From Planctomycetota bacterium (GTDB lineage: Bacteria > Planctomycetota > UBA11346): a DNA stretch of 64,000 nucleotides. The notes beneath the pieces are model-generated. The model did no database searches. It saw only the letters and a program-made list of their open reading frames with translations, and was not told the DNA's origin. Shown here piece by piece: positions 20,155-38,080 of the stretch; the first letter of the stretch is position 1, and the number at the start of each line of letters is the position of its first letter. The position numbers were made by a program, and so were the translations under genes. The stretch is from NCBI GenBank assembly GCA_035627695.1, contig DASPLE010000112.1:5626-69625 (forward strand), read 5' to 3'.

Positions 20155-20159
20155 CACGC

Positions 20160-21203: not shown

Positions 21204-21267
21204 GGCCGGCGCCCGCCGCCGCCAATGCCCCACCAGCGCCCCGCGAAGCCCCCCTGCGAACGGACCC

Positions 21268-23409
21268 ATGGCCACCATCCACTGCATCTTCAACGCCCAC
21301 ATCGACCCGATCTGGCTGTGGCCGTGGCAGGCGTGCATCGACGAGGCGATCGCCACCTGCCGCAGCGCCTGCGATCGGCTCGATGCGCATCCCGACTTCG
21401 TCTTCAGCCAGGGCGAGGGCTGGATCTTCCAGCAGCTCGAGCGCTGCGACCCCGCGCTGTTCGCGCGCTGCGCCGCGCACATCCGCTCCGGCCGGTGGGA
21501 GATCGTCAACGGCTGGTGGGTGCAGCCGGATTGCAATCTGCCGAGCGGCTGGGGATTCGAACGCCAGATCGGCGTCGGCCTGCGCTATTTCGCCGGGCAC
21601 TTCCCCGGGCTGAAGCCGCGCGTCGGCTACAACATCGACAGCTTCGGCCACGCCGCGACGCTGCCCGGCTACATGCGCGCGGCCGGACAGGACCGCTACG
21701 TGATGATGCGGCCGCAGGAGCACGAGATGCGCCTGCCGGCGCGCCTCTTCCGCTGGCGCGGCTTCGACGGCGGACCCGAGGTGACGACCTTCCGCATCGC
21801 CGGCCACTACGGCACCGGCGACAACGTCTGGGGCGGCCACATCGACCGCGGGCTGACCGAGCTGCCCGCCGGCTGCGAGCACACCATGGTCTACTTCGGT
21901 CTCGGCGACCACGGCGGCGGCGCGACCGAGAACCAGATCGCGTGGGTGCGCGCCAACCAGCGCGCCTTCGCCGGGCACCAGCTGGTGTTCTCGACGCCGA
22001 CGCGCTTCTTCGACGCGGTCGCCGCGCAGAAGATCGAGCTGCCGCTGGTCACCGGCGAGCTGCAGCACCACGCGATCGGCTGCTACACCGTCCACCGCAA
22101 GGTGAAGACCGGCCTGCGCCGCGCCGAGCACCTGCTGCGCCAGGCCGAGCTCGCGATGGACGGCGCGCCGGCGATGCCGGGCATGCCGGCGTGGGAACCG
22201 CGCCTCGAGGAGGCGTGGCAGAAGGTCGCGTTCGTGCAGTTCCACGACACCATGGGCGGCACCTGCCTGCCGTCGGCGTACGCGCAGGTCGACGACCAGC
22301 TCGGCTTCGCCAACGCCATCGCCGACGAGGCCGTGCAGCAGCGCATGCGCGCGGCGATGATCGACCTGCCGGCGGATCCGCTGCAGCGCATCGTCTGCTG
22401 GAACCCGTCGGACCAGGCGTTCGCCGGCTGGATCGAGTTCGAGCCGTGGCTGCACGTGCCGTGGAACGACGGCACCGTCCTCGACGAGCGCGGCGCCGAG
22501 GTGCCGTACCAGAAGATCGCCCGTGAAGCCGTCACCGAGTTCCACTGGGGGCCGCCGCGCCTGCTGATGCGCCTGACGATCCCCGCCGGCGGGCGGCGGG
22601 TGCTGAAGCTGAAACCGGCGTCGCCGCCGGCGGTCGCCTACGCCGGCGTCGCCGTGCGCTCGACCGTCGCCGCCAACCGCGCCGGCGTCGGCTTCGACGC
22701 GGCCGACGGCAAGCTGCTGTTCGCCGCCGGCGCGCTGCCGCGTCCGCGGCTCGACCTGATCGACGATCCCAGCGACACCTGGACGCACCGCGTCGACCGC
22801 TACCTCGACGGTCCGGCGGAGTCGGCGCGCTGGAACGAGCCGACGTACATCGATTTCGGACCGCTCATGGCGTCCGCGATCCAGACCGGCGAGATCGGCC
22901 GCAGCCGGCTGAAGGCCGAGTGGCGGGTGCACGCCGACGACGCCTGGGTCGAGCTGCGCCTGCACGTGCATTGGCTCGAGAAGCAGAAGGTGCTCAAGCT
23001 GACGCTGCCGTTCCCGGCTCCGGCGGCCGACCGCGTCGACGGCATCCCCGGACGCTGGCTGGCGCGGCCGAACGCCGGGCGCGAGCTGCCGCTGCGCGAT
23101 TTCACCATCAACCGCTGCGACGACGGCCGTCAGCTCGCGGTGATCTGCCCGGACGCCTACGCGCTCGACGCCACGCCCGAGCGCCTGCGCATCACGCTGC
23201 TGCGCGCGCCGGTGATGGCGCACCACGAACCGCATCTCGGCAACGGCCCGCGCGGCGTGATCGCCGACCAGGGCGCGCACGAGTTCCGCTTCCGCTTCCA
23301 GCTCGGCCGCGACATCGCGCCGCAGGAGTGCGACGCGATCGCCACCGGCTGGCAGCGCGCGCCGCTGTGCGCCGACCTGACGCGCGGCATGCCGACGCGG
23401 GTGATGTAG
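21268..23409 (+). CDS. Glycoside hydrolase family 38 (alpha-mannosidase-like)
   Basis: In-frame ATG at 21268 (track ORF 21202..23409). MATIHCIFNAHIDPIWLWPWQ matches the GH38 N-terminal HID..WLW signature, followed by GWWVQPDCNLPSG. Confidence 0.85.
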   Translation: MATIHCIFNAHIDPIWLWPWQACIDEAIATCRSACDRLDAHPDFVFSQGEGWIFQQLERCDPALFARCAAHIRSGRWEIVNGWWVQPDCNLPSGWGFERQIGVGLRYFAGHFPGLKPRVGYNIDSFGHAATLPGYMRAAGQDRYVMMRPQEHEMRLPARLFRWRGFDGGPEVTTFRIAGHYGTGDNVWGGHIDRGLTELPAGCEHTMVYFGLGDHGGGATENQIAWVRANQRAFAGHQLVFSTPTRFFDAVAAQKIELPLVTGELQHHAIGCYTVHRKVKTGLRRAEHLLRQAELAMDGAPAMPGMPAWEPRLEEAWQKVAFVQFHDTMGGTCLPSAYAQVDDQLGFANAIADEAVQQRMRAAMIDLPADPLQRIVCWNPSDQAFAGWIEFEPWLHVPWNDGTVLDERGAEVPYQKIAREAVTEFHWGPPRLLMRLTIPAGGRRVLKLKPASPPAVAYAGVAVRSTVAANRAGVGFDAADGKLLFAAGALPRPRLDLIDDPSDTWTHRVDRYLDGPAESARWNEPTYIDFGPLMASAIQTGEIGRSRLKAEWRVHADDAWVELRLHVHWLEKQKVLKLTLPFPAPAADRVDGIPGRWLARPNAGRELPLRDFTINRCDDGRQLAVICPDAYALDATPERLRITLLRAPVMAHHEPHLGNGPRGVIADQGAHEFRFRFQLGRDIAPQECDAIATGWQRAPLCADLTRGMPTRVM

Positions 23410-23427
23410 CCCGCGCCGGCGAAGCGC

Positions 23428-24252
23428 TCAGAGCCGCGACGGCGGCGCGCCGAGCTCGCGGCGCACCAGGCGGGTGAACGTCGCGCGCGTCGGGAAGCCG
23501 CAGCGCGCGGCGACCTCGGTGACGGGGAAGCCTTCGCTGAGCAGCGCGCGCGCGAGCTCGAGGCGCTGGCGGGTGAGCGCGCGCTTCGGGCTCTCGCCGA
23601 AGTAGTCCTGGAACAGCGCGAAGGCCTGGCTGCGGCCCAGGCCGCTGGCGGCGATGACGTCGCGCGCGGTGATCGGCTCGTGCAGGCGGTGCCACAGCGC
23701 GCTGATCATCGCCGACAGCGCGGGATGCAGGCGGCCGAGCGGCTCGGCGGGCTCGGCGAGCACCTGCTCGATCAGCGCGGCGACCGCGCTGCGGCGCTCG
23801 GCCGGCGTCGATGCGGTGACGATCGCCTCGGCGAGCCGGCGGCACGGCTCGATGGGGACCTTGCTCCATAGCCGCGCGCCGTGCTCGGCCAGCAGCAGGT
23901 CGGAGAACGCGGCCTGGAAGCCCTGGCTGTAGCACGACGACCCCGGGCGCAGCGGTTCGTGCAGGTGCCAGACGCCCGGCAGGATCAGCAGCGCGTCGCC
24001 GGGACCGAGATCGACGGCGTGGCGCGCGCCGCGTCCGGCCGGGCCGCCGGTGACGCGCGCGACACCGTCGAGGCAGGCGACCAGCGTCGGCACGGTGTGC
24101 ATGTGCGCCTCGACGCCGGTCGGCGGCGCGGCGGCGCGGGCGCTCCAGATGTGGACGTCCTTCAGCCGGGCCGGCAGCCCCTGGAGCTGGACCCACAGTC
24201 GGCGGATGGCGTGGTCGTAGGCGGCGATCGGCATGGCTGCTGCTCGCGTCAT
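23428..24252 (-). CDS. AraC-family transcriptional regulator (cupin plus HTH)
   Basis: ORF-track 274 aa. C-terminal VTEVAARCGFPTRATFTRLVRRELGAPPS. Confidence 0.85.
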   Translation of the reverse strand: MTRAAAMPIAAYDHAIRRLWVQLQGLPARLKDVHIWSARAAAPPTGVEAHMHTVPTLVACLDGVARVTGGPAGRGARHAVDLGPGDALLILPGVWHLHEPLRPGSSCYSQGFQAAFSDLLLAEHGARLWSKVPIEPCRRLAEAIVTASTPAERRSAVAALIEQVLAEPAEPLGRLHPALSAMISALWHRLHEPITARDVIAASGLGRSQAFALFQDYFGESPKRALTRQRLELARALLSEGFPVTEVAARCGFPTRATFTRLVRRELGAPPSRL

Positions 24253-24398
24253 GCCAGCGGATGCTGCACGGGCGCGGCTGCAGGCAGGCTACGCCAGCCG
24301 CCGACAGGGCGCAATTGCTCCGATCGGTGTCGGACTTCCCGCACCCTGGCCCATGCCAGCCCGCCTGCGGCGGCGATGCTGGGTTCTACCCTCGCGCC

Positions 24399-26198
24399 AT
24401 GCCAACCACCGCCTCCAAGGCCGCCATGACCACCAAGCCCGCCGTCTCGTTCGCCCGCCGCGAAGCCGGAGGCGTCAGCGCGCCGCGCGACGTGGTCGCG
24501 GCGTTCGACGGCGCGCGGCGCTGGCTGATCATCGCGCCGCACGACGACGACGCGGTGCTGGGCATGGGCCTGGCCATCGTCGCCGCGACCACCGGCGGCG
24601 TGCAGGTCGACGTCGCCATCGTCAGCGATGGGCGGATGGGGTACGGCACCGCCGCCGAGCGCGACGGGATCGTCGCGCGCCGCGCCGTCGAGACCCGCGA
24701 CTCGCTGACCCGCGTCGGCGTGCCGGCCGAGCGCGTGCACTGGCTCGGCTTCCCCGACAGCGACCTGCCCAACCACCAGGGCGCGACCGCGGACGGCGGC
24801 ATCGCCCGCGCGCTGACCCGCGTCATGCGCCAGGTGCGCCCCGACGCCGTGTTCGCGCCGACCAACGCCGACCTGCATCCCGACCACCGCGTGGTCGCGT
24901 CGGAGACCGACATCGCCGTCTTCCACGCCGCCGGCGAGATCTGGCTCGAGCTCGGTCCGCAGCTCGAGCGCGTGCCGGCGCGCTGGGACTACGCGGTGTA
25001 CTGCCCGTTCCCCGAGCCGCCGACGCTGCTCGCGCGCGGCGACGATGCCGCCTTCGCCGCCAAGGTCGCCTCGGTCGAGGCCTATGTCAGCCAGGGCCAG
25101 ATCGCGTCGCTGATCGCCTCGATGCGCGCCGCCGGCCCGCTCGAGACCTACCTGCGCCGCACCTGGACGCCGTACCGCGCCAGCGACACCGTCGCGCTGT
25201 TCGGCGCCGCCGCGGTCGGCGACAGCGGCTGCCAGCGCGACGCGGTGCGCGCCGCGGCGTGGGTCGCGACCATGCCCGACGCGCCGTGGGCCGAACTGGT
25301 GTCGGCGCTGAAGGACCGCGCCGCGCCGCCGCTGCTGCTGGTCGGCGAGGGCTCGAGCCGCCTGTTCCCCGCGGGCTTCATGCTGTCGCTGGCCCGGCGC
25401 TGGGGCTGGCTGGATCGGATCGCCGCGGCGAGCGGCCGCATCGCGCAGACCCTCGACGCGACGAAGTGGCGCCCGCTGGCGCTGTCGAACTCCGGCCGCA
25501 CCCGCGAGGTGTACGACTTCATCAAGGCGACTCCGGGCACCAGGCCGCTGGCGCTGCTCGGGCTCGACGGCGGGCCGATCGCGCAGGCCGCGGCGGTGAA
25601 GCGCATCGTGCTCGATCAGCCCGAGGAGGCCGTCGCCGCGACGATCAGCGCGCTCGGCCAGGCGTTGATCCTGGCGCAGGGCCTGGCGAGTGCCGCCGGC
25701 AAGGCGTTCCCGCGCGCGGCGATCGCCACGGCGCTGGCGCCGCTGGTCACCGCCGAACCGCCCGACGCGGTGCGCGCGCTGCTGCCCGGCGTGAAGCGGG
25801 TGTTCTGGTGCGGCGCCGACGATGGCGTCGCCGCCGAGCTCGCGCTCAAGACCATGGAGATCACCGGGCTGGTCGGCATCGCGCCGGAGACCGGGCTGGT
25901 CCTGCACGGGCTCGAGGAGGTGCTGACCGAGAGCGACCTGGTCGTGCTGATCGATCCGCCGCGCGACGACCACGGCCCGCTGCAGAAGTACCTGATCGAC
26001 GGCACGTCGACGCGGGTCATCGCGCTGGCGAGCGCGCCCGCGGTCGGCGCGTGCTGGCTGCAGCCCGACCTCGGCGAGTGGTCGCCGCCGCTGCGCCTGG
26101 TCGCCGGCTGGCGCCTGCTCCTGTGCCTCGCCGCGGCGATCGGCCGCGATCCCGACAAGCCCGCACGCGCGCGCAAAGTCGGCAACCCCATCGTCTGA
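24399..26198 (+). CDS. Fusion protein: PIG-L/LmbE-family deacetylase plus tandem SIS (AgaS/GlmS-isomerase-like) domains
   Basis: In-frame ATG at 24399 (track ORF 24261..26198). PIG-L motifs: IIAPHDDDAVLGMG and HPDHRVVA. SIS1: LLLVGEGSSRLFP...LSNSGRTREV. SIS2: AELALKTMEITGL...LHGLEEVL. Confidence 0.8.
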   Translation: MPTTASKAAMTTKPAVSFARREAGGVSAPRDVVAAFDGARRWLIIAPHDDDAVLGMGLAIVAATTGGVQVDVAIVSDGRMGYGTAAERDGIVARRAVETRDSLTRVGVPAERVHWLGFPDSDLPNHQGATADGGIARALTRVMRQVRPDAVFAPTNADLHPDHRVVASETDIAVFHAAGEIWLELGPQLERVPARWDYAVYCPFPEPPTLLARGDDAAFAAKVASVEAYVSQGQIASLIASMRAAGPLETYLRRTWTPYRASDTVALFGAAAVGDSGCQRDAVRAAAWVATMPDAPWAELVSALKDRAAPPLLLVGEGSSRLFPAGFMLSLARRWGWLDRIAAASGRIAQTLDATKWRPLALSNSGRTREVYDFIKATPGTRPLALLGLDGGPIAQAAAVKRIVLDQPEEAVAATISALGQALILAQGLASAAGKAFPRAAIATALAPLVTAEPPDAVRALLPGVKRVFWCGADDGVAAELALKTMEITGLVGIAPETGLVLHGLEEVLTESDLVVLIDPPRDDHGPLQKYLIDGTSTRVIALASAPAVGACWLQPDLGEWSPPLRLVAGWRLLLCLAAAIGRDPDKPARARKVGNPIV

Positions 26199-26205
26199 GG
26201 ATCCC

Positions 26206-27231
26206 ATGACCCGCATCTCGTTCCTCTCGACCGCCCACATCCACGCCCAGCCCTGGATCGAATCGATCGCCAAGGCCGGCGATGGCCGACGCCTGCACCT
26301 GGTGTGGGACGACGTGCCTGAACGCGGCAGGCGTCACGCCGCGCTCGCCGGCGGCACCTTCGAGCCGAGCCTCGACAGGGTCCTCGCCGATGCCGCGACC
26401 GACGGCTTCGCCATCGCCAGCGAGAACGCGCCCAAGCAGCCGCTGCTGACGCGCGCGCTGGCGACCGGCAAGCCGGTGCTGTGCGAGAAGCCGGTCGCGC
26501 TCACCGTCGCGCAGGCCGACGAGATCGCGACGCTGATCGCGCGCCACGGCACGACCATGGTCAACGGCTACGTCTTCCCGTTCATGGGCTGCTACCAGGC
26601 GGTCATGCGCCTCGTCGCCAACCGCGCCTTCGGCCAGATCACGCACGTCTCCTTCCGCAACGCCCACGGCGGCGCGTGGTGGCGCTGGTTCGACGACGCC
26701 GCGCTGGCGTGGTTCCACGATCCGGCGAAGGCCGGCGGCGGCGGCCTGCTCGACGAGGGCACGCACGGGCTGCACCTGCTGCGCTGGCTGTTCGGGCCGG
26801 TGAAGCGCGTCTGGGCGACGCACCGCAACCTCTCGCACCAGTACCCGTCGGCCGACGACTTCGGCGTCATCCACCTCGACTTCGCGAGCGGCGTCTTCGG
26901 CACGGTCGAAGGCTCGTGGGTGCAGACCGCGGGACCGAAGGGCCTGCAGATCTGCGGCAGCGAGGCGGCGCTGAGCGCCGACAAGCCCCAGGAGTACCGC
27001 GTCCACCGCGGCAACGCGACCGTGCCGGTGAAGAACGCCGAGCCGCGTCCGAGCGAGCTCGACCGCCTGGTCGCCGCCATCCGCGGCACGCTCGACCGCG
27101 ACGAGCACCGCGTCGATCTGACCGCGGCGCTCGACGCGGCGCGGATCATGGCGGCGGCGCTGGCGAGCGCGCGCGATGGCCGCTGGATCGAGCTGGCGCC
27201 GGCTGCGGCGATCGCCGTCGCCCAGCGCTGA
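26206..27231 (+). CDS. Gfo/Idh/MocA-family oxidoreductase
   Basis: ORF-track 341 aa. GKPVLCEKPVAL. Starts 8 nt after the previous stop, with GAGGA upstream. Confidence 0.85.
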   Translation: MTRISFLSTAHIHAQPWIESIAKAGDGRRLHLVWDDVPERGRRHAALAGGTFEPSLDRVLADAATDGFAIASENAPKQPLLTRALATGKPVLCEKPVALTVAQADEIATLIARHGTTMVNGYVFPFMGCYQAVMRLVANRAFGQITHVSFRNAHGGAWWRWFDDAALAWFHDPAKAGGGGLLDEGTHGLHLLRWLFGPVKRVWATHRNLSHQYPSADDFGVIHLDFASGVFGTVEGSWVQTAGPKGLQICGSEAALSADKPQEYRVHRGNATVPVKNAEPRPSELDRLVAAIRGTLDRDEHRVDLTAALDAARIMAAALASARDGRWIELAPAAAIAVAQR

Positions 27232-27598
27232 TCGCGATCGACGGTCGCGGAGGCAGCGGGCGAGCACGGCCGCGTGTCGCGAAAACGCCCGCGGTGGCGG
27301 ATATCGCCGCTCCCGCGATGCGGCGAGCGATGCGGAATTGGACGGCGCCGCGCGCGGTCGCGACGCCGTCGCGTCAGCTACGAACACCACCGGATCGCGT
27401 GCAGGATCGCCTACACATCCGGCGATCGTCCGCGGAATCTGATAACGTCGCGCCAAGCACGTAGGATCCCGCTCGTAGCGGTTGCGGACGTTCCGCATCC
27501 CGTGGGCTGGCGGACCTGCGCTAGGCGCGGTGACGTCAGCCGCGACGCACGTTCACTGGTGGAACGCCGTCGCGCCGCCACCGCGAGGCGGTGGTGGA

Positions 27599-28387
27599 AT
27601 GGTGGTGGAATGGTGGCTGGGAGCGCTGCTGGTCGGCGCCGTGCCGGGGACACCCGAGCCGGTGAAGCCGGTCGCCGGGCTCCCCGAACTCGCCGGCCGG
27701 TTCTACGACGACGATCTGGGCTACCGCCCCGACCGCCCGCACTACCGCACGTGGCAGCTGACCGCCGCCCTGAAGATCGACCGCGTCGTCATCACGCTCG
27801 ACCATACGACGCTCGACGGACCGGTGGTCGATCGGCGCATCGATGTGCTCTCCGGATCGCTGGCGTGGACCGACGCGCTGGATCTCGGCGGTGATGACGG
27901 CGCCTGGTATTGCGCCGGCGCCGGCGGGCGCGGGCGCGGGAACTACGAAGGCGGCTGGATCCAGCGCCGCGGCCACCAGCTGCTGCACGACAACTACACC
28001 GCCACGCCGTACGAGGACGACACCTCGGTCGATGGCTACGCCTTCCTGAACGCCGGCTGGCTGGCGTGGACACCGTCGTGGACCAGCGCACGCCTGCGCG
28101 CCGGCATCGAGCTCACCGCCAGCGGCGAGGCGGTGACCGACGGCCAGCTCCAGTCGGCGCTCAAGCTGCGGGCGATCGGCGCCATCGGCCCGGTGTCGGC
28201 GTGGCTGGGCATGGTCGACAACCGCCATGGCGGCGACAGCGACAGCGATGCGGAGCAGGAAGTCCTCGAGCACGAGGAGGGCCTGATGTGGATCGGCGGC
28301 TTCTCGGCGTGGTGGTTCAGCTACGCGCTGGTGTGGCTGCCCGACGCCGAGGTCGCCGGCGCCGTCAGCGCCGAGTTCGGATTCTGA
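27599..28387 (+). CDS. Hypothetical protein, possibly an outer-membrane beta-barrel (C-terminal ...SAEFGF)
   Basis: In-frame ATG at 27599 in track ORF 27482..28387. High third-position GC, aromatic-rich alternating segments and a terminal Phe. No family recognised. Confidence 0.55.
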   Translation: MVVEWWLGALLVGAVPGTPEPVKPVAGLPELAGRFYDDDLGYRPDRPHYRTWQLTAALKIDRVVITLDHTTLDGPVVDRRIDVLSGSLAWTDALDLGGDDGAWYCAGAGGRGRGNYEGGWIQRRGHQLLHDNYTATPYEDDTSVDGYAFLNAGWLAWTPSWTSARLRAGIELTASGEAVTDGQLQSALKLRAIGAIGPVSAWLGMVDNRHGGDSDSDAEQEVLEHEEGLMWIGGFSAWWFSYALVWLPDAEVAGAVSAEFGF

Positions 28388-28417
28388 GGCGGCATCGGCG
28401 ATCGCGCCTCGCGCGCA

Positions 28418-28897
28418 TCACCACCAGCTGACGAGATCGAGCAGCCCGCAGGCGAGGTCGAAAGCCCACGCACCCGACTCGTTCTCGTGCGCCGGCGGCA
28501 TCGCGCGCCGACCGGGAACCGCCATCCGCGCCTGCGACAGCGGCCGACGCGGCATCAGCGCGATCTCGTCGCGATCGAACCAGATCACGTGGCAGCGGCG
28601 GCAGCACTCGATCTCGACCCCGCTGACCGGACGCACGGCGCGCATCGGCAGGCGGCAGATCGCGCACGCGCGCCGCGACGGGAGATCGGCATGTGCCCAG
28701 GCGGCGCGCATGGCCGCCTCCGAGCAGTGGCGACGCAGGATCGCGATGCCGACGAGCACGCCGTGACAGGCCTCGCAATGGTGGACGACGCCACGCCAAC
28801 CGCTGGCGCCGGCGACTCCGCCCTCGGGCAGGAACCTTTCGCGAGCGGTCGATCGCAGTCCGGGCAAAGCGGATCGTGCATCGCCCGAGTCTACCAC
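28418..28897 (-). CDS. Zinc-ribbon protein (zf-TFIIB-like, PF13453-type)
   Basis: ORF-track 159 aa (GTG start). CAICRLPMRAV...VEIECCRRCHVIWFDRDEI gives a CxxC...CxxC plus W-F-D-x-x-E pattern. A weaker first copy is HHCEACHGVLV. Confidence 0.55.
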   Translation of the reverse strand: MVDSGDARSALPGLRSTARERFLPEGGVAGASGWRGVVHHCEACHGVLVGIAILRRHCSEAAMRAAWAHADLPSRRACAICRLPMRAVRPVSGVEIECCRRCHVIWFDRDEIALMPRRPLSQARMAVPGRRAMPPAHENESGAWAFDLACGLLDLVSWW

Positions 28898-29184
28898 GGT
28901 CGCGGCCGTTCACCCTGGTCGCGGAGCAGCCGCGCTGGGCAGGACGTCGGCGCCTGCCCCCCGCCGGCGCGCGTCAGCGACCGAACCGGATGCGCATGCG
29001 CGGCGGGCGCCGCCGCGCGGACGCGCGCCGGCAGATGATCGGCCGCCACTCCGGAGCCGGTCCCCACCACGGCTCGCGCATCGCACGCGACACGCGTCGC
29101 ACGCCGATGCGGCGTACGGAGCGGCGGGCGTTGGACGGACGGCGGGTGGCGCGGGTGCGCATGGGACACCTCGGAGGTGAGGAC

Positions 29185-29315
29185 GTCGCGACCGCGCTGT
29201 CGTTGCGCGTGGGCGCCGGTCTGCCGGTCGCCTGGTCGTACGTCGGATGGAGATGGAGGGATGTCGACCGCGCTGGCGTTGCGCATGGACGCCGGAGCTG
29301 CCGGTCGCCTGGTCG
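29185..29315. repeat. Imperfect tandem duplication, two units of about 53 nt with a period of about 78 nt
   Basis: Unit 1 (29185-29238): gtcgcgaccgcgctgtcgttgcgcgtgggcgccggtctgccggtcgcctggtcg. Unit 2 (29263-29315): gtcgaccgcgctggcgttgcgcatggacgccggagctgccggtcgcctggtcg. The units differ by indels that break any common reading frame. Confidence 0.7.
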
Positions 29316-29482
29316 GATCCACGAAGAACAACGGAGCTGGCCCGGTCAGCGGACCTTCGGCCGCGGAGCCGTCGCGAGGACGGATCGGCGGGCCTATGCA
29401 TCGGTGCGGGCGGACGCGGTTTCCCGCGTCGTGTCACCCTCCCTACAACTCCGAAAAGAAAGAACGGTGTGTGCCCGCGTCG

Positions 29483-29520
29483 CGAAAACGAAGGAACCCC
29501 GGCTGGTCGGCCGGGGTTCC
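29483..29520 (-). terminator. Rho-independent terminator (minus strand), copy 2 of a near-identical pair
   Basis: On the minus strand: GGAACCCCGGC-cgacca-GCCGGGGTTCC followed by TTCGTTTTCG. Confidence 0.6.
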
Positions 29521-29684
29521 TGGGAAGTCGCGATCGCGGATGGATCAGGACCCGGAACCCCCGGCATGCCACGACATGCGCGAGCGCGTGGCGGCGTCGG
29601 CGAGGCTGGCTTTGGCAGCGGCGCGATGGGTGGCGATGGTCATGCGGCTCTCGTTGGATGACTCGGAAGCGACTCGGACGACTC

Positions 29685-29721
29685 GGAAACGAAGAACCCC
29701 CGGCGCTCGGGCCGGGGGTTC
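29685..29721 (-). terminator. Rho-independent terminator (minus strand), copy 1 of a near-identical pair
   Basis: On the minus strand: GAACCCCCGGC-ccgagc-GCCGGGGGTTC followed by TTCGTTTCC. It shares the stem core and trailing TTCGTTT with the hairpin at 29483-29520. Confidence 0.6.
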
Positions 29722-29922
29722 GTGAGGGATCGGTTGCGACCGACGATCACGAACGCCCTGGCGGGGCCGACTGGGCAGAACCCACGGTCGCTTTCACGAC
29801 CGACGGCTTGCGCATCGAACGATGCCAGCAGGTGATGACGGTGGCGGCCATGCGCGTGGTTCTACCTGGCTTGGAGATGACGTCAACCGTGGCATTTACC
29901 GTGCGATCAGCATCGCGCCCGA

Positions 29923-29990
29923 TTCGAGCGACCGCTTCGAGCTTCGAGCTTCTAGCTTCGAGCTTCGAGCTTCGAGCTTCGAGCTTCGAC
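29923..29990 (-). repeat. Heptamer microsatellite, about 9 units of GCTCGAA as read on the minus strand
   Basis: The + strand reads ttcgagc gaccgc (ttcgagc)x2 ttctagc (ttcgagc)x4 ttcgac. This is the reverse complement of the unit at 40287 and 54172. Confidence 0.9.
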
Positions 29991-30091
29991 GACGTCGGCC
30001 GCGGCCTGGACCGCGTCAGCCCACGCCTCGGCACTGATCGGCAACCGCGCCCGCCGATTGACCGCGCGCGCCGGCTTCGACATTGCCGCGC

Positions 30092-30387
30092 ATGAAGAAC
30101 GCCTGCGTCTGCGCCATCCTCGTCGCGATCGCCATCGTCGCCGGATGCGATCGCCGCGACAACGCCACGACCACCCCCGACCGACGCGGCCATGCGTTCG
30201 GCGAACGCGGGACGCCGCCGGGCGAAGCGACGCCGGGCGCCGACGAGACCTACTACACCGTCCAGCCCGGCGACACGCTGACGTCGATCGCCAAGGCGCA
30301 CGGCGTGCCGCTCGAGGTCCTGATCCGGCGCAACAACATCTCCGGCGATGCGGTGCCGGCGCGGCTGGTCGTGCCGGCGAAGCCGCG

Positions 30388-30391
<4 letters not shown>
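30092..30391 (+). CDS. LysM-domain lipoprotein
   Basis: ATG at 30092 within track ORF 30083..30391. Lipobox AIVAGC. LysM motif YTVQPGDTLTSIAKAHGVPLEVLIRRNNI. Confidence 0.75.
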
Positions 30392-31518
<1,127 letters not shown>

Positions 31519-31661
31519 GGTCCTACGCTCGCGCCGGCCGGAGCCCGCTCAACGGGTCGGGCTCGACGCCCCGTGACCGCCCCTGGGCGCTGCCGATGCT
31601 GGCGGTGAAACCAGCATCCGTCGACCGACCTCGTCCGTAGCATCCACCAGCGAGACACCCC

Positions 31662-32042
31662 ATGAACCGCATCATCGCCGCCGCCCTGCTAATCGCCTGC
31701 ATCACCGGCGCCGTCCAGGCCGCGGATGCCACGCACGTCACCACCCAGGCCGAGCTCGACGCGATCCTCGCCGCCAACGAGGGCACCGTGCTGCTCGACT
31801 TCCATGCTTCGTGGTGCGGGCCGTGCAAGATGCTGGCCAAGGAGATCGAAACCGTGACGACCGCGCACCCGGACGAGGTCACGGTCGTCAAGGTCGACAT
31901 CGACAAGGCCGAGGCCCTGGCGACCGCCTACAAGGTGTCGTCGATCCCGCACCTCGTGCTGTTCAAGGGCGGCAAGCAGACGGACAGCGCGGTCGGCTAC
32001 ATGAAGGCGCCCGAGCTGACCACGTGGCTCGGCCTGAAGTGA
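31662..32042 (+). CDS. Thioredoxin with N-terminal signal peptide (exported)
   Basis: ORF-track 126 aa. MNRIIAAALLIACITGAVQA signal sequence and active site WCGPC. Confidence 0.9.
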   Translation: MNRIIAAALLIACITGAVQAADATHVTTQAELDAILAANEGTVLLDFHASWCGPCKMLAKEIETVTTAHPDEVTVVKVDIDKAEALATAYKVSSIPHLVLFKGGKQTDSAVGYMKAPELTTWLGLK

Positions 32043-32088
32043 CACGAGGCGGTTGATCCCGCGGCGATGGCGCGTCGGATGCGTCGCC

Positions 32089-32880
32089 ATGTCGACCAGC
32101 CCCCTGCCGTGGTTCCACGGGCCGCGTGAACGCAGCCTCGCCATCGCGCTCGCGACCGGCCTCGCCGCCCTGCTGATCGTCGTCGCGTTCCTGCCGCGCC
32201 TGCCGCAGGACGAGGACTACCACCGCTTCGCCGACTGCCGCTGCTGGCTGGGCGTGTCCAACACCGCCGATGTGCTGTCGAACGCGCCGTTCGCGCTCGT
32301 CGGCATCGTCGGCCTGTGGCTGGCGGCGCGGCGGCGCACGCCCGAGCGTGCCGCGTGGCTGACGTTCTTCGTCGCGGTCGCGGCGACCGCCATCGGCTCC
32401 GGCTACTACCACCTCGCGCCCGACACGCCGCGGCTGTTCTGGGATCGCCTGCCGATGACCGTCGCGTTCATGGCGCTGACCGCGGCCATCGCCGGCGCGC
32501 GGCTGGGTCCGCGCCTGGGACGCTGGCTGCTCGCGCCGCTGGTCGTCGCCGGCGCCGCCAGCGCGGTGTACTGGCGGCAGAGCGAACTGGCCGGCGCCGG
32601 CGATCTGCGCTGGTACGCGATGGTCCAGTTCGCGCCGATGCTGGCGATCCCGCTGGTCATTGCGCTGACGCCGCGGCGTGACGTCGCGGGACGCGACATC
32701 GCCATGGTCATCGCGCTCTACGCGCTGTCGAAGCTGCTCGAGTGGCTCGACGCGCCCGTGCTCGAGCTGATCGGCGTCTCGGGCCACACGCTCAAGCACC
32801 TCGCGGCCGCGGCGGCGACGGGCTGGGTCGCGTGGATGCTGCGTCGACCAGCCGGGGGCGATGTCGTCACCCGCGGGTGA
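32089..32880 (+). CDS. Alkaline-ceramidase-family (PF05875-like) polytopic membrane protein
   Basis: In-frame ATG at 32089 in track ORF 32053..32880. About 7 hydrophobic segments. His motifs GSGYYHLAP, WDRLPM and GHTLKHL (HxxxH). Confidence 0.6.
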   Translation: MSTSPLPWFHGPRERSLAIALATGLAALLIVVAFLPRLPQDEDYHRFADCRCWLGVSNTADVLSNAPFALVGIVGLWLAARRRTPERAAWLTFFVAVAATAIGSGYYHLAPDTPRLFWDRLPMTVAFMALTAAIAGARLGPRLGRWLLAPLVVAGAASAVYWRQSELAGAGDLRWYAMVQFAPMLAIPLVIALTPRRDVAGRDIAMVIALYALSKLLEWLDAPVLELIGVSGHTLKHLAAAAATGWVAWMLRRPAGGDVVTRG

Positions 32881-33038
32881 TCCCGCCGGGCTGCCGCCAC
32901 GCACGGATCGGCACGAGCATTCCGGCGGCGGAGCGCTCACTCGGCCACGAGCCGTGGCGCCGCGCTGATCCAGCGCATCTGGAACCGCGAGACGCTGGGC
33001 GAGACCCTGCTGCGCTTCGCCGTCCGGCCGGTGCGCTA

Positions 33039-34958
33039 TCAGGCCGCGATCAGCGCGTCGAGGTCGCCTCGCGCCAGGGTCTCGCGCTCGAGCAGCGCCC
33101 GCGCGATGCGCTCGAGCGCCGCCCGCCGCTGATCCAGGATGCCGAGCGCGCGCTTGGCCTGGCCCTCGACCAGGGCCTTGAGCTCGTCATCGATCGCCTG
33201 CGCGGTGGTCTCGCTGTACGTGCGCTGCTCGTCGCCCTCGACGGCGAGGAAGCGCAGCGGGCTACTGCGTCCGTAGGTCACCGCGCCGAGCCGCTCGTTC
33301 ATGCCGTAGCGGGTGATCATCTGCCGCGCCAATGCCGTGACGCGCTCGAGGTCGTTGGCGGCGCCGGTCGAAAGGTCGCCCATGATCAGCAGCTCGGCGG
33401 CGCGCCCGCTCAGCATCACGCAGATCCGGTCGGCGAGCTCGTCGCGCGTCATCAGGTAGCGCTCCTCGGTCGGCAGCTGCAGGGTCGCGCCGAGCGCGCC
33501 GATCGAGCGCGGGATGATGGTCACGCGGTGGACGGGGTCCGCGCGCGGCACCGAGAGCGCGCAGAGCGCGTGCCCGGCCTCGTGGTACGCGACGCGGCGC
33601 TTCTCGTCGGCGTTCATGATGCTGCCGCGCTTCTTCAGGCCGAGCTGCATGCGGTCGATGGCCTCCTCGAAGTCGTGCATCGCGACCACCGCGGAGCGGC
33701 TGCGCGCGGCGCAGATCGCGGCCTCGTTGACGACGTTGGCCAGATCGGCGCCGACCATGCCCGGGGTGCGTTGCGCGACCTGGCGCAGATCGAGCCCGTC
33801 TGCGACCTTCACCTTGCGCGCATGGACGCGCAGGATCGCCTCGCGGCCGTTCAGGTCCGGCCGGTCGACCAGGACCTGGCGATCGAAGCGGCCGGCGCGC
33901 AGCAGCGCCGGATCGAGCACCTCGGGCCGGTTGGTCGCCGACATGATGATGACGCCGACCCCGGCCTCGAATCCGTCCATCTCGACCAGCAGCTGGTTGA
34001 GGGTCTGCTCGCGCTCGTCGTGCGTCGCCATCGCGCCGATGCCGCCGCGCGCGCGGCCGATCGCGTCGAGCTCGTCGATGAAGACGATGCACGGGGCGCG
34101 CTCCTTCGCCTGGGTGAACAGGTCGCGCATGCGCGCCGCGCCGACGCCAACGAACATCTCGACGAAGTCCGACCCGGACAGCGAGAAGAACGGCACCTCG
34201 GCCTCGCCGGCGACGGCCCGCGCGAGCAGCGTCTTGCCCGTGCCCGGCGGACCGACCAGCAGCACGCCGCGCGGGATGCGCGCGCCCAGGGCGCGGTAGC
34301 GCGCCGAGTCGCGGAGGAAGTCGACGACCTCGATCAGCTCCGCCTCGGCCTCGTCGACGCCGGCGACGTCGGCGAAGGTCACGCGCTCCGCCTGGTTGCG
34401 ATCGTAGATCTTCGCGCGGGTGCGCCCGAAGCTGAGCGGCCCGCCGCGGCCGGCGGCCCGCCTGGCCATGAACCACCACAGGCCGCCGATCAGCGCCAGC
34501 GGGATCAGCCACGACAGCACGAGGTTCCAGACCATCGTCGTGTCGATCTCGCCGACGACGGCGACGCCATGCGCGAGGAGCTCGTCGTGCAGCGCCTTGT
34601 CGTCGACGCCCGGCAGCCGGTGGGCGACGATCGGCCGCTCGGCCGCCGGCGGCGCGGGCGCGCCCCCTGCCGGTGGCGGCGTGACCGGCGCCGGCTGATC
34701 CGTCGGTGGCGTCGCCGGCGCGGCCGGCTTGAACGTCGCCGTCACCTGCGTCGGCGACACCGCCACGCGTTCGAGCCGGTCCTGCCGCAGCAGGGCGATG
34801 AACTCGCTGTACGGCACGCGCCGCGGACCGTACGCCGGACCGAGCAGGCCCTGCATGAGCACGATCAGCGCGAGCGAGGCGATGACGAACAGCCAGCGTC
34901 TTCGCCAGCCGTCCGTCGGACGCGGTCGCGGCGGCTGCTCGGACGTGCCCACGCTCAT
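33039..34958 (-). CDS. ftsH: ATP-dependent zinc metalloprotease FtsH
   Basis: Track ORF 33039..35018, start taken at ATG 34958. [27 protein letters not shown], Zn site HEAGHAL, N-terminal TM. Confidence 0.95.
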
Positions 34959-35171
34959 GCCCGCGGATGCTAGGTCGACATGACCGCGTCGATCCGCGGC
35001 GCAGGGCACATTGCACATCGCGCCCCGCGTGCCGCGCCCTCGCGCCGTCGGACGAGATCCCGACCGTGTCGAACTTCGAGCCGGCGCGATGGCGGCATCC
35101 GAGCCGCGTGTTTACAAGCCTGGCCCTCGAGCCGACCGGCTCGCCGACACCGCCAACGAGGAACACCATCC

Positions 35172-35633
35172 ATGCTCAACGACCTGTTCGCGCCACGCTA
35201 CGCCAGCGGCTTCGACCGCAGCTTCGACCGCATGGTCGACGACATGGCGCGGCTCTTCAACCAGTCGTGGGCGACGCCCTGGCGCACGAGCGCCGCCGGC
35301 GGCTTCCCCGCGAGCGAACTGTGGACCGACGAGAAGGGCGAGACCGCCGCGTTGACCCTCGAGGTGCCCGGATGCCGCGCGGAGGACATCGAGGTGTCCG
35401 TGGTCGGCAGCTCGCTGACCATCAAGGGCAGGCGCACCGTCGAGCTGCCCGAGAAGGGCGCGACGTGGCTGCTGCGCGAGCGCGCCGACGCCGAGTGGAA
35501 CCAGACGGTCAACCTGCCGTTCGACGTCGAAGCGGGGCAGGAGAAGGCGTCGTTCCGCGACGGCGTCCTGTGCATCACGCTCAAGCGCTCGGGCAAGGAC
35601 GCCCCGCGCCGCATCCCGCTGTCCGATCGCTGA
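35172..35633 (+). CDS. Hsp20/alpha-crystallin small heat-shock protein
   Basis: In-frame ATG at 35172 (track ORF 34980..35633). ACD pattern ...LTLEVPGCRAEDIEVSVVGSSLTIKG...ASFRDGVLCITL. Confidence 0.9.
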   Translation: MLNDLFAPRYASGFDRSFDRMVDDMARLFNQSWATPWRTSAAGGFPASELWTDEKGETAALTLEVPGCRAEDIEVSVVGSSLTIKGRRTVELPEKGATWLLRERADAEWNQTVNLPFDVEAGQEKASFRDGVLCITLKRSGKDAPRRIPLSDR

Positions 35634-35659
35634 TCCGCAACCCACACCTGGAGAGAACC

Positions 35660-36082
35660 ATGGCGAATTCCAACGACGAACGCGGCGTCTCCTCGCGGGG
35701 CGCGGGTCGGGACGTCGCGACCACGACGCGCGAGACCGCTCCCGACCGCGAGCGGCGCATCGCGGCGCCCTGCGACGCCTACGAGACCGCCGACCGCATC
35801 GTGATCCTCGCCGACATGCCCGGCGTCGATCAGGAGCACCTCGAGGTCACCCTGCACCGCGGCACGTTGCTCATGCGCGGGCGCGCCGGCAAGCCCGTGC
35901 CGGAGCACCTGCGTCCCTTCAGCGATGACGACGCGACGACCGTCTACGAGCGCACGCTCCAGGTCGCATCGTCGATCGATCCGGAGAAGGTCAGCGCGAC
36001 CATGAGCGATGGCGTCCTGCGCATCGAGCTGGCGAAGCCGCAGGAGGAGCGTCCGCGGCGCATCGCGATCAACCGCGGCTGA
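35660..36082 (+). CDS. Hsp20/alpha-crystallin small heat-shock protein (second copy)
   Basis: ATG at 35660 with GGAGAG upstream (track ORF 34967..36082). IVILADMPGVDQEHLEVTLHRGTLLMRG...ATMSDGVLRIEL. Confidence 0.85.
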   Translation: MANSNDERGVSSRGAGRDVATTTRETAPDRERRIAAPCDAYETADRIVILADMPGVDQEHLEVTLHRGTLLMRGRAGKPVPEHLRPFSDDDATTVYERTLQVASSIDPEKVSATMSDGVLRIELAKPQEERPRRIAINRG

Positions 36083-36090
36083 ATCACGGA

Positions 36091-36120
36091 GGCGCCTGCG
36101 TCGCAGCCGACGCAGGCGCC
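36091..36120. terminator. Strong hairpin between convergent hsp20 and AraC genes
   Basis: GGCGCCTGCGTCG-cagc-CGACGCAGGCGCC, a 13-bp perfect stem 9 nt after the hsp20 stop. No T-run on either side. Confidence 0.45.
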
Positions 36121-36161
36121 GTCCGGGCATCGGACGCGCCTCGATGAGACGCCCGTTGCCC

Positions 36162-37013
36162 TCACGGGAGGCGGTGGCGCGCCCGCCGGAATTCGGTCGG
36201 GCTGGCGCGATGGTGGCGGCGGAACGCGCGCGAGAAGTAGAACGGGTCCTCGTAGCCGCAGGCGCGGGCGACCTGCGCGATGGCGCGGTCATCGGCGGCG
36301 AGCAGGGCCGCGGCCTGATCCATGCGGCGGCGGGCGATGAACGCGTGCGGCGGCACGCCGAAGGCGGCGGTGAAGGCGCGGCGGAACTGCACGGCGCCGA
36401 TGCCCGAGGCCCGGGCCAGCAGCGGGATCGGCACACCGGCGGGGAAGCGCCGTTCGATCAGCGCGATCGCGGGAGCGAAGCGTTCGCGCTGCGCGGCGAT
36501 CGCGACCTCGTCCCGCGCGACGCGATCCAGGGCGGCGCCGGCGACCGCCAGCGCGAACGCGTGCACGGCCGCGGACAGCGCCGCGCCGCCGCCGGCGACG
36601 TGCTCGGCGAGACGGCGGTACATCGGACGCCACCACCGCCAGTCGCCCTCCGGCCACGCCAGGACCTCGCGCACCTGCGCGAGGCGCTGCGTCAACGGCA
36701 GGCCGTCGGCGGTGAAGTGCAGCCAGTGCACGCGCATCGCGCGCTCGCAGACGTGGGCGTTCGCGGCATGCGCCGGGATCAGGTAGACGCTGCCGGGCCG
36801 CAGGTCGGTCCACGCGCCGCCGAGGCAGTACCGGGCGCCGCCCGATATCGGCACGTAGATGCGGTTGAAATCGCGGCGATACGCGCGCGGCTTCGACCAT
36901 CGCGGATCGCAGTGGTAGAGCCCGCCGGCGATGACCGAGACCGAGCTGGTGGCCATGCCCACGACCCTACCCGTGGCGATCGTTTCATCCAGGCGCTTCG
37001 CTCTGGTGTCCAT
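36162..37013 (-). CDS. AraC-family transcriptional regulator
   Basis: ORF-track 283 aa. HTH VQFRRAFTAAFGVPPHAFIARRRM and IAQVARACGYEDPFYFSRAFRRHHRASPTEFR. The start is uncertain: an alternative ATG at 36956 would leave the repeats below intergenic. Confidence 0.8.
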   Translation of the reverse strand: MDTRAKRLDETIATGRVVGMATSSVSVIAGGLYHCDPRWSKPRAYRRDFNRIYVPISGGARYCLGGAWTDLRPGSVYLIPAHAANAHVCERAMRVHWLHFTADGLPLTQRLAQVREVLAWPEGDWRWWRPMYRRLAEHVAGGGAALSAAVHAFALAVAGAALDRVARDEVAIAAQRERFAPAIALIERRFPAGVPIPLLARASGIGAVQFRRAFTAAFGVPPHAFIARRRMDQAAALLAADDRAIAQVARACGYEDPFYFSRAFRRHHRASPTEFRRARHRLP

Positions 37014-37071
37014 GTCATGGGGATGTCCGCGCCACTAGGCTGCCGACGGATCATCCATCGTTTCATCCAGG
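36979..37071. promoter_or_regulatory. Two perfect 15-nt direct repeats ATCGTTTCATCCAGG, 78 bp apart, in the AraC/PhyH divergent region
   Basis: Copies at 36979-36993 and 37057-37071. A third TCATCCA lies at 37051-37057. This patch is the AT-richest of the region. Confidence 0.35.
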
Positions 37072-37078
37072 ATCAGCC

Positions 37079-37915
37079 ATGGACCACCGCCCCACCTTCG
37101 CCATGGTCCCGACCGATGCCGAGCTGCGCACCGTACCGCGCGACCTGAGCTACCACCCGAGCCCGGTGCGGACGCCACGCACGCTCACGGCCGAGCAGGT
37201 CGCGCGCTTCGACCGCGACGGCCACCTGAGCGGCCTGCGCATCTTCGCTCCCGACGAGATCGCCGCGCATCGCGCCTACTTCGACGACCTGCTGGCGCGC
37301 GTCCTCGCAACGGGCGGCGACAGCTACTCGATCAGCACCGCGCACCTGCGCTACGCGCCGGTCTACGACCTGCTGCGCGAGCCGCGCATCGTCGCGGTGG
37401 TCAGGGACCTGCTCGGCGACGACGTCGTGGCGTGGGGCTCGCACTACTTCTGCAAGATGCCCGGCGACGGCAAGGTCGTCGACTGGCACCAGGACGCGAG
37501 CTACTGGCCGCTGACGCCGGCGAAGACCGTGACGGTGTGGCTGGCGATCGACGACGCGCGCGTCGACAACGCCTGCATGCGCTACATCCCGGGCACGCAC
37601 CGCCTCGGGCACCTGACGTACGCGCTGAACGAGGGCGCGTCGGACGCCGTGCTGCCGCAGTCGGTCGCCGGGGCCGAATCGCTCGGCACGCCGATCGACG
37701 TCGAGCTGGACGCCGGCATGGTCGCGATCCACAGCGACCTGCTCCTGCACGGCTCGCGGGCCAACACCTCGACGCGGCGTCGCTGCGGCCTGACCCTGCG
37801 CTACTGCGCCGCCGACGTGCGCGCCGGGCTCGGCTGGGCGGAGAAGGGCACCGTCGTCGCGGGTCGCGACCGCGATGGCCACTGGGGCGACCCGCCGCGC
37901 CCGACCGGACGCTGA
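37079..37915 (+). CDS. Phytanoyl-CoA dioxygenase (PhyH)-family oxygenase
   Basis: ORF-track 278 aa. WHQDASYWPL, IPGTHRLGHL, HGSRANTSTRRRCGLTLRY. Confidence 0.85.
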   Translation: MDHRPTFAMVPTDAELRTVPRDLSYHPSPVRTPRTLTAEQVARFDRDGHLSGLRIFAPDEIAAHRAYFDDLLARVLATGGDSYSISTAHLRYAPVYDLLREPRIVAVVRDLLGDDVVAWGSHYFCKMPGDGKVVDWHQDASYWPLTPAKTVTVWLAIDDARVDNACMRYIPGTHRLGHLTYALNEGASDAVLPQSVAGAESLGTPIDVELDAGMVAIHSDLLLHGSRANTSTRRRCGLTLRYCAADVRAGLGWAEKGTVVAGRDRDGHWGDPPRPTGR

Positions 37916-38080
37916 TCGCGCGGCTGCGCTGCCGGCGCGCTCCGCCATCGGTCAAGCCGCGCTCCGGTGGGCCGATCATTCCCGCTTTGGCGACCGTTCC
38001 GCTGGATGGCGCCCGCCAAGTCGCTGCGCCTCCCGCCCTTCCGCGCTGACATCGCCGGCGCCACCCCCATCAAGGCATCC

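Follow-up and report, generated by a model that had tools for sequence, protein, structure and literature searches.

A conserved and expressed RNA locus with two serial micro-ORF/terminator cassettes, a candidate tandem attenuator upstream of an orphan small basic protein gene, in soil Planctomycetota

Introduction

In the leader-peptide attenuators of trp and his operons, a short leader open reading frame (ORF) precedes an antiterminator that makes use of the terminator 5' arm, the antiterminator strand is located under the footprint of a ribosome at the end of the ORF, and termination yields a discrete small RNA (sRNA). Here, we describe a locus sharing these features in the interval 28898-30091 of a 64,000-nt stretch of DNA from a Planctomycetota bacterium (contig DASPLE010000112.1; the whole stretch is called the window), which originates from a soil metagenome. 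On the minus strand, this interval harbors two consecutive cassettes, each composed of a micro-ORF and an intrinsic terminator (ORF1 with T1, ORF2 with T2), followed by a structured RNA stretch of 330 nt, which includes Domain I and, in tandem, the Y elements Rep1 and Rep2, and by a gene for a 62-residue protein (ORF3). The interval is best explained as a single minus-strand transcription unit, extending from about 29851 to 28974, whose conservation is seen within a small, uncultured clade of soil Planctomycetota. The feature is real, conserved, and expressed; as a system, a cis-acting leader/attenuator or an sRNA, it is of a known kind, and its family and architecture are new. Tentatively, we favor the explanation that it is a tandem conditional-termination leader, which would control ORF3 and also release abundant short RNAs.

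Attenuator RNAs can have a function after their release, as demonstrated for the trpL attenuator of Sinorhizobium (S. meliloti), where the released RNA rnTrpL acts in trans (PMC6614838). In contrast to the trp and his attenuators, the locus described here contains neither a regulatory codon run nor a downstream biosynthetic operon; it has two serial cassettes and a further 330 nt of structured RNA, conservation of the RNA of its first cassette far exceeds the requirements of a leader peptide, and its first ORF would be leaderless. Leaderless polycysteine short ORFs of mycobacteria are attenuators as well; stalling at their Cys codons unmasks a downstream ribosome-binding site and thereby exerts translational control (bioRxiv 10.1101/834739). 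Similarly, the transcript of our locus would begin at the AUG of an unannotated short ORF which constitutes the first cistron, and control would be exerted via mRNA structure. However, a codon run is missing, the structures are intrinsic terminators, and the phylum is a different one.

Leader-peptide attenuators responding to antibiotics and translation stress were identified in Firmicutes by Term-seq; they precede resistance genes encoding ABC-F proteins, methyltransferases, or efflux pumps. There, as we propose here, efficient translation of the leader ORF leads to termination and impaired translation to read-through, whereas the product of our locus is an orphan basic protein of 62 aa. Autoregulatory operators adjoin their own ribosome-binding site, examples being the two-stem-loop operator of thrS and ribosomal-protein leaders such as S10/L4, the latter joining attenuation with translational control. 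Our locus resembles them in having two repeated structured elements that immediately precede the Shine-Dalgarno sequence of a small, very basic protein, but ORF3 has neither homology to a ribosomal protein or a synthetase nor a known fold, and an operator role is a prediction. Finally, tandem structured RNA repeats upstream of a protein gene, transcribed from one promoter, are also found in the type III toxin-antitoxin system ToxIN. This candidate was rejected: the locus has two repeats of about 67 nt instead of several of about 36 nt, its terminators are located upstream with none between repeats and gene, and ORF3 comprises 62 aa as compared to about 170 aa of the ToxIN endoribonuclease toxin; moreover, it has no match in Pfam or NCBIfam (the PADLOC library was not searched).

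Results

Mosaic conservation and promoter

Orthologous loci were gathered via the flanking LysM and ATPase proteins (L001/L002, L004, L033/L034, and L040/L043). Alignment A2 comprises the window and four other lineages of the same uncultured soil Planctomycetota clade, that is, five lineages in total; extra variants of the locus were obtained from contigs of six further soil metagenome runs. The features of the transcription unit are given below in the order of transcription; identities refer to the window compared with each of the four other lineages.

29886-29859, minus: sigma-70-like promoter; -35 box TTGACG at 29886-29881, 16-nt spacer, -10 box TAGAAC at 29864-29859, 7 nt to A29851
29747-29851, minus: RNA1 body, which is micro-ORF1 with 34 codons; 90-98% identity
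29747-29762, minus: antiterminator 5' strand of cassette 1, GCCAGGGCGUUCGUGA, formed by the last five codons and the stop codon of ORF1; pairs with 29725-29711
29683-29721, minus: terminator T1, stem 29721-29694 plus tail UUCUUCGUUUCC
29660-29687, minus: three copies of GACTCGGA (as read on the plus strand) in the variable linker after T1; linker 23-59% identity
29545-29643, minus: micro-ORF2, 32 codons (38 in L002 and L004), with a Shine-Dalgarno-like motif GAGAG/AGAGG upstream; 92-95% identity in the 3' 40 nt
29551-29565, minus: antiterminator 5' strand of cassette 2, GCCGGGGGUUCCGGG, within the last codons of ORF2; pairs with 29524-29510
29483-29521, minus: terminator T2, stem 29521-29492 plus tail UCGUUUUCG; 85-92% identity
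29331-29454, minus: Domain I, a 124-nt four-way junction closed by the 8-bp helix P1 (29454-29447 with 29338-29331); 87-91% identity
directly after P1, minus: U-rich linker; 24-36% identity
29257-29323, minus: Y element Rep1, a three-way junction of about 67 nt; 88-89% identity
29179-29246, minus: Y element Rep2, a three-way junction of about 67 nt; 92-97% identity
29163-29178, minus: ribosome-binding region of ORF3; Shine-Dalgarno sequence GAGG at 29172-29169 inside a small CACCU/AGGUG hairpin
28974-29162, minus: ORF3, encoding a 62-aa arginine-rich orphan protein (MRTRATRR...RRVSRAMREPWWGP...PIICRR...); 72-83% identity in the three lineages with the full gene
past the ORF3 stop codon: 33-50% identity

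Conserved blocks with identities of 87-98%, above those of the flanking protein genes (81-92%), alternate with linkers of 10-60%. Conservation starts abruptly, within 2 nt of position 29851, and ends at 28974 with the stop codon of ORF3; the spacer upstream of the promoter towards the LysM and ATPase genes (29887-30049) is variable in length and only 9-45% identical. The arrangement TTGAC[G/C]-16 nt-TA[G/C]A[A/T]C-7 nt-ATGG is common to all five lineages and to a Logan contig of run X4. Both boxes and their spacing are kept, while the 16 nt between them occur in four diverged versions. A consensus promoter scanner made no call at 29886-29859 because the -10 box ends in C; support for the promoter is therefore provided by the phylogenetic footprint. 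The predicted transcription start is A29851, the A of the ORF1 start codon; hence, ORF1 would be leaderless.

Terminators of the two cassettes

The stems of T1 and T2 consist of 11-12 bp with nine G-C pairs each and are followed by T-rich tails. A terminator scan of 3 kb returned three sites as compared to 0.5 expected from shuffled sequences, and a strict hairpin-plus-T-tail rule applied to the whole 64-kb window found three terminators, two of them being T1 and T2. This genome seems to have few canonical terminators. The third one (1234-1259, plus strand; GCCCCCGCTCC-GGCC-GGAGCGGGGGC followed by CTCTTTTTTC) served as a control. In T1, the pair 29714:29701 changes from C-G to U-A in L040 and in the metagenome runs X3-X5. 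T2 is kept in all lineages with one change from G-C to G-U, for which pairing is possible on the minus-strand RNA alone.

The start codons of both micro-ORFs are 208 nt apart. Similarity between the cassettes is significant only in terminator plus tail (score 38 as compared to a shuffle maximum of 30); homology of the parts upstream of the terminators was considered and discarded, their similarity not being significant. All relatives lack 20-21 nt at the GACTCGGA array, which therefore arose by expansion in this lineage and does not belong to the conserved design. A preliminary description made from the window sequence had listed both ORFs, both terminators, the threefold repeat, a hairpin at 29413-29430, a tandem duplication, a heptamer microsatellite, and a cassette spacing of about 208 nt, all of which are present at the positions given and go beyond chance expectation. 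It had overlooked the antiterminator complementarity and the four-way-junction domain, and also that the cassettes look like parts of one leader.

Predicted competing antiterminators at the ends of both micro-ORFs

Start, frame, and stop of ORF1 and ORF2 are kept in five lineages, and ORF1 precedes T1 as ORF2 precedes T2. In cassette 1, the duplex between the end of ORF1 and the T1 5' arm has a predicted energy of -23.2 kcal/mol, as compared to -13.9 ± 2.6 for shuffled upstream sequence (1 of 1000 shuffles as good). In cassette 2, the corresponding values are -25.8 and -15.8 ± 2.9 kcal/mol (2 of 1000). The control terminator at 1234 has no upstream competitor strand, 341 of 1000 shuffles being as good. 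When partial transcripts reaching to the terminator loop were folded, the antiterminator was the minimum free energy structure; when the 3' arm was added, this was the terminator. Computationally, antiterminator and terminator are thus mutually exclusive, with the antiterminator strand within ribosome reach of the ORF.

Neither competitor strand varies, even at synonymous sites, whereas the remaining ORF2 sequence is free to change. The only substitution in the GCCAGGGCGUUCGUGA strand (in L004) affects a mismatched A, and in the core GCCGGGGGUUCC of GCCGGGGGUUCCGGG, four four-fold-degenerate codon positions are unchanged in every lineage. Furthermore, each ORF is followed by a small hairpin U-GAUC...GAUC which starts in the stop codon; its extension varies with pairing kept (AC/GU in L040, AG/CU in L002, A/U in L004; alignment A8).

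The preliminary description had proposed an sRNA or micro-ORF locus. Of this proposal, a conserved minus-strand RNA locus with two ORF-terminator cassettes is borne out; the ORF2 peptide, however, is unconstrained. Codon changes in ORF2 amount to 7-10 nonsynonymous versus 0-3 synonymous ones per pair, without codon-position bias; ORF2 is therefore not a conserved small protein. An in-frame indel of 18 nt distinguishes lineages, and conservation of ORF2 is limited to its 3' 40 nt. ORF1 showed a weak third-position bias. Two of its "synonymous" changes form a compensatory pair of the hairpin 29801-29786, where C-G is replaced by U-A in two lineages; the pair 29808:29779 changes from A-U to C-G in one lineage. 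Hairpins of the locus thus persist in relatives, accompanied by compensatory changes. Near-invariance is found in the 5' 45 nt of RNA1 and also extends beyond the ORF1 stop codon. No NCBIfam match was found for the ORF1 and ORF2 peptides.

RNA from the locus in soil metatranscriptomes

RNA of the locus is present in soil metatranscriptomes, as contigs from close relatives. A contig of run X7 covers 29824-29631, comprising RNA1 body, T1, and the ORF2 start, with about 97% identity if the 20-nt lineage-specific insert is left out, and a contig of run X11 covers 29473-29259, that is, Domain I and the start of Rep1. The X7 contig crosses T1 and continues 60 nt past it; read-through RNA therefore exists. 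Both contigs are unstranded; they were assigned to the minus strand on the basis of the tails of the terminators, the promoter, and G-U pairing.

The same RNA runs were compared with 20 kb of the window (20001-40000). Within this region, no other long contig from a close relative was found, including the LysM and ATPase genes; the other long matches were low-identity pieces of ftsH from many organisms. Contaminating DNA would hit about 30 times more sequence elsewhere in the 20 kb; hence, RNA of the locus is much more abundant than the neighboring mRNAs.

Structured leader between T2 and ORF3

RNAalifold was used to derive a consensus structure for the 330 nt between T2 and ORF3. The hairpin 29430-29413 (GACGCGG/CCGCGTC), which has a GAAA loop on the RNA strand, is one arm of Domain I. 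Three of eight P1 pairs are changed on both sides among the five sequences: A-U to G-C; U-A, U-G, or C-G; and U-A to C-G. Several G-U pairs in Domain I fix its strand as minus. The U-rich linker after P1 is variable in length and contains 5-8 consecutive U in several lineages. A riboswitch would combine a conserved aptamer of covarying helices with an expression platform; observed here were a covarying P1 followed by a U-rich tract, and compensatory RNA1 hairpins preceding a terminator/antiterminator, in a comparison of five sequences that gives no clue to a ligand.

The tandem duplication has a period of 76-77 nt (29189-29315) and corresponds to the two Y elements, both of which are present in each lineage whose sequence reaches them. 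For 21 modeled pairs, 98% of cells are paired as compared to 29-47% with slid partners. The outer helix differs between the copies (GGAUG/CAUCC and GACGU/ACGUC) and pairs in both. With a covariance model of the Y element, exactly two copies were detected at each locus and none elsewhere in 142 kb, and a blastn search with the unit against the window found only the unit itself; a dispersed repeat family was rejected.

A search of the 64-kb window against Rfam 15 gave no match at gathering score, and at E ≤ 10 only terminator-driven noise was obtained, for example the rnk leader with 22.5 bits as compared to a threshold of 55. The orthologous region of L040 likewise matched no Rfam family. Domain I and the tandem Y elements are two new structured RNA motifs.

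ORF3 behaves like a real gene

The interval had previously been regarded as gene-free and ORF3 as an arginine-rich shadow. Comparison of relatives indicates that ORF3 behaves like a real gene. Its protein is 71-81% identical between lineages, like the neighboring proteins, its stop codon is the exact edge of conservation, its start region GAGGUGUCCCAUG is invariant in all lineages, and an indel of 3 nt is in frame. Six frames were compared because the antisense frame shares the wobble positions of ORF3. Ratios of synonymous to nonsynonymous changes were 11:12 and 15:11 in two independent pairs, the best of the six frames, as compared to 9:15 and 9:14 for the antisense frame. In a frame plot of G+C by codon position, a moderate coding signal was found at 28900-29200 in the phase of this 62-codon minus-strand ORF, and no coding signal at about 29200-29900.

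Long plus-strand ORFs (28693-29661, 29177-29725, and 29247-30095) were also considered. None of their frames carries the genome's G+C signal at third codon positions across 29200-29900, and all three are broken by indels between lineages; they were rejected. Automatic gene calls are wrong in the relatives: in L004 (1-891, plus), a 296-codon ORF covering the RNA elements was placed on the opposite strand, and nothing was called in the interval of L002 (1580-2733) and L040, the 62-aa gene being missed.

The start codon of ORF3 is located 17 nt from the end of Rep2. The CACCU/AGGUG hairpin sequestering the Shine-Dalgarno sequence was read from the sequence and is kept only in part. A homologue of ORF3, P0129, comprises 63 aa with 59% identity, has the same N-terminus, and is preceded by a gap of 657 nt; no further relatives were found among 1.84 billion representative proteins, and no match was obtained in Pfam and NCBIfam. 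The protein is extremely basic. AlphaFold2 gave a predicted local distance difference test score (pLDDT) of 56 and a predicted template modeling score (pTM) of 0.16, and most of the protein is predicted to be disordered when alone.

Genomic setting and distribution

The surroundings of the transcription unit, in a window with a G+C content of about 72%, contain the following features.

28898-30091: the interval, flanked by divergent genes for a Zn-ribbon protein (minus) and a LysM lipoprotein (plus)
28418-28897, minus: gene for the Zn-ribbon protein (Pfam Zn_ribbon_TFIIB, E = 1e-5)
29934-29989, no strand: heptamer microsatellite (GCTTCGA)8, identified by Tandem Repeats Finder (TRF); upstream of the RNA1 promoter, between the divergent LysM and RNA1 promoters
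ATG at 30092, plus: gene for the LysM lipoprotein
30388-31518, minus: gene for the AAA_21 ATPase, convergent with the LysM gene

The heptamer array is outside the transcript and, being specific to this lineage in its exact form, does not belong to the conserved design. It is longer, as (CGAAGYC)n, in L040 (6900-7010), short in L033/L034 (L033: 3650-3700), and missing in L002 and L004. A change in copy number may alter the spacing between the LysM and RNA1 promoters. Assemblies break at the array, and in every metagenome it draws an enormous k-mer depth from unrelated organisms. Upstream of the LysM gene (30058-30094, plus), a conserved TTGACC box and a -10-like GACATT ending 7 nt before the ATG were found, and its start lacks a Shine-Dalgarno sequence. 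This geometry is the same as that of the RNA1 promoter; leaderless mRNAs may therefore be common in the organism.

The Zn-ribbon gene, immediately downstream of ORF3, is present only in the lineage of the window; L002 and L040 have about 100-155 nt at this position, followed by a convergent gene. It is therefore outside the conserved unit, either as a lineage-specific insertion or because it was lost in the other lineages. In the window organism, ORF3 and the Zn-ribbon gene may share a transcript.

The nearest named relative of the window ATPase is encoded by a metagenome-assembled genome designated "Planctomycetes bacterium" (90% identity). ATPase homologues with at most 68% identity (L035-L039) are non-syntenic, found in unrelated contexts, and not accompanied by the element. 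At about 68% identity, AAA_21 ATPase homologues (L039 from Logan SRR33641988; L035-L038) have very different gene neighborhoods, one of them ending an operon for resistance-nodulation-division (RND) efflux and another one being located amid many short genes including Abi_alpha, YqaJ, DUF2726, and an HTH_17 gene. Due to these varied settings, the family seems mobile across contexts.

An exact 20-mer scan of genome contigs with CTGCTGGCATCGTTCGATGC and one of metagenome contigs with CCACCGTCATCACCTGCTGG returned chance matches only; the assembly of the window itself was also not among the matches, and may be masked there. The matches L005-L032 have no similarity beyond the 20-mer. L011 was considered as a distant copy with about 40 nt in common; it has no terminator and no synteny, and the match was judged to be due to chance. 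These results imply that the element is rare, or that these 20-mers were lost in more distant relatives. Within reach of the searches made, the element appears confined to a narrow clade.

Discussion

A proposed tandem conditional-termination leader

We tentatively favor a leader in which a sigma-70-type promoter would fire at or next to the AUG of micro-ORF1 and the transcript would run into two intrinsic terminators, one after the other and both of them conditional. Within each cassette, the antiterminator 5' strand would be provided by the last micro-ORF codons and would compete with the terminator hairpin for the terminator 5' arm. A ribosome at the micro-ORF stop codon would cover this strand and so allow the terminator to form, releasing a short, abundant RNA. 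When translation of the micro-ORF is slow or absent, the antiterminator would form first and polymerase would read through T1 and T2 into the leader. There, the Y elements next to the ORF3 Shine-Dalgarno sequence would be the likely operator at which a factor tunes ORF3 translation; this factor may be the ORF3 protein itself, bound as a dimer or at two sites. The leader elements beside the ribosome-binding site would thus constitute a second, translational layer of control. The data show a promoter footprint, conservation, the terminators and their antiterminator complementarity, covarying helices, a coding signature of ORF3, and RNA from the locus, whereas we infer conditional termination, the ribosome as the sensor, and binding of the ORF3 protein to the Y elements.

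A more far-reaching version is conceivable and rather doubtful: a composite riboregulator, in which two serial micro-ORF attenuators, the first one leaderless, would gate a new structured RNA domain and an arginine-rich, RNA-binding ORF3 protein that regulates itself via Y operators, with the abundant RNA1 also acting in trans. As a lead in this direction, the invariant 5' segment of RNA1 (29812-29851, minus) contains AUCACCUGCU, which resembles, with one change, the 3' end of 16S rRNA, AUCACCUCCU (anti-Shine-Dalgarno); it would be a possible seed aimed at ribosome-binding sites.

Several points weigh against conditional termination as formulated here. Neither peptide contains a regulatory codon run, and a cognate biosynthetic operon downstream is missing. 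Translation of the micro-ORFs is a prediction, and by our estimate the chance of a 35-codon open frame in DNA of 70% G+C is roughly even. The antiterminator state is less stable than the terminator state by about 8 kcal/mol, so that read-through would have to depend on kinetics. The alternative fold is not backed by covariation, because its antiterminator strands do not vary. RNA1 is conserved from end to end, including structured hairpins inside ORF1, a pattern better explained by a functional RNA than by a leader peptide alone. The metatranscriptome contigs are unstranded, with a depth of about 3 and ends not mapped, and the X11 contig begins just downstream of T2, where a second start site is possible. 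Structure shuffle controls were exceeded only modestly, and with five lineages available the statistics are thin.

Alternative explanations

Of the alternatives, a serious rival, although less likely than the leader, regards RNA1 (about 165 nt, 29851 to approximately 29685), and perhaps RNA2, as free-standing trans-acting sRNAs with constitutive terminators, ORF3 and its structured 5' untranslated region being a separate gene downstream; in a variant, RNA1 may have a dual function and also encode a 34-aa peptide, in agreement with the weak third-position bias of ORF1. RNA1 combines a conserved promoter of its own with a strong terminator and is the most conserved part of the locus (90-98%), its nearly invariant 5' 45 nt are a candidate seed region, it was detected in a soil metatranscriptome in which the neighboring mRNAs were not, and attenuator-like RNAs are able to act in trans (PMC6614838). 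However, the X7 contig runs 60 nt beyond T1, there is no promoter-like footprint for RNA2 or the leader, and a simple sRNA would have no use for the significant antiterminator complementarity found at T1 and T2.

It is less probable still that the terminators are conditional and controlled by a small-molecule ligand or an RNA-binding protein, for example the ORF3 product in a feedback loop, which would bind the RNA1 body, RNA2, or Domain I and thereby shift the antiterminator/terminator balance as in riboswitches or systems of the TRAP, PyrR, or LicT type. Such a sensor would account for the structure and covariation of RNA1 and Domain I and for their conservation beyond the needs of a leader peptide, as well as for the unconstrained ORF2 peptide. 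The 5-8 U directly after P1 in several lineages have a terminator-like geometry, and ORF3 is very basic and predicted to be disordered, as many RNA-binding peptides are. On the other hand, no Rfam riboswitch or leader matched even at E ≤ 10, and the downstream gene gives no hint at a metabolite. Furthermore, starts and frames of the micro-ORFs and the positions of their stops relative to the antiterminators are kept in all lineages, which a sensor other than the ribosome would not need.

Three small-protein genes (34, 32, and 62 aa) with functional peptides and ordinary terminators are very unlikely. The three frames are uninterrupted in every lineage, Shine-Dalgarno-like motifs precede ORF2 and ORF3, and ORF1 could do without a leader; but for ORF2 the nonsynonymous rate is at least as high as the synonymous one (dN ≥ dS) without codon-position bias, the strongest conservation is found in untranslated stretches (after the ORF1 stop codon, in Domain I, and in the repeats), and none of the three has an NCBIfam match, ORF3 having no Pfam match either. 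The suggestion of the preliminary description that the terminators end a long 3' untranslated region of the ATPase gene (30388-31518), running antisense through the LysM gene, agrees with the strand of that gene and can be dismissed in view of the conserved promoter at 29886-29859, the abrupt onset of conservation at 29851, the divergence of the intervening 29887-30049, and the RNA runs, which contain no long contig of a close relative over the LysM or ATPase gene.

Implications

Regulatory RNAs in Planctomycetota seem to be little studied; in our literature search, no planctomycete-specific study of regulatory RNA was found. The locus provides a concrete candidate which is conserved and expressed. 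A serial pair of terminator/antiterminator switches is unusual, and the orphan small basic protein represents a type of gene that automatic annotation tends to miss or to assign to the wrong strand. Arginine-rich "shadow" ORFs in high-G+C DNA should be compared with relatives before they are dismissed. If the ribosome-sensing model is true, attenuation by leaderless short ORFs would extend beyond Actinobacteria.

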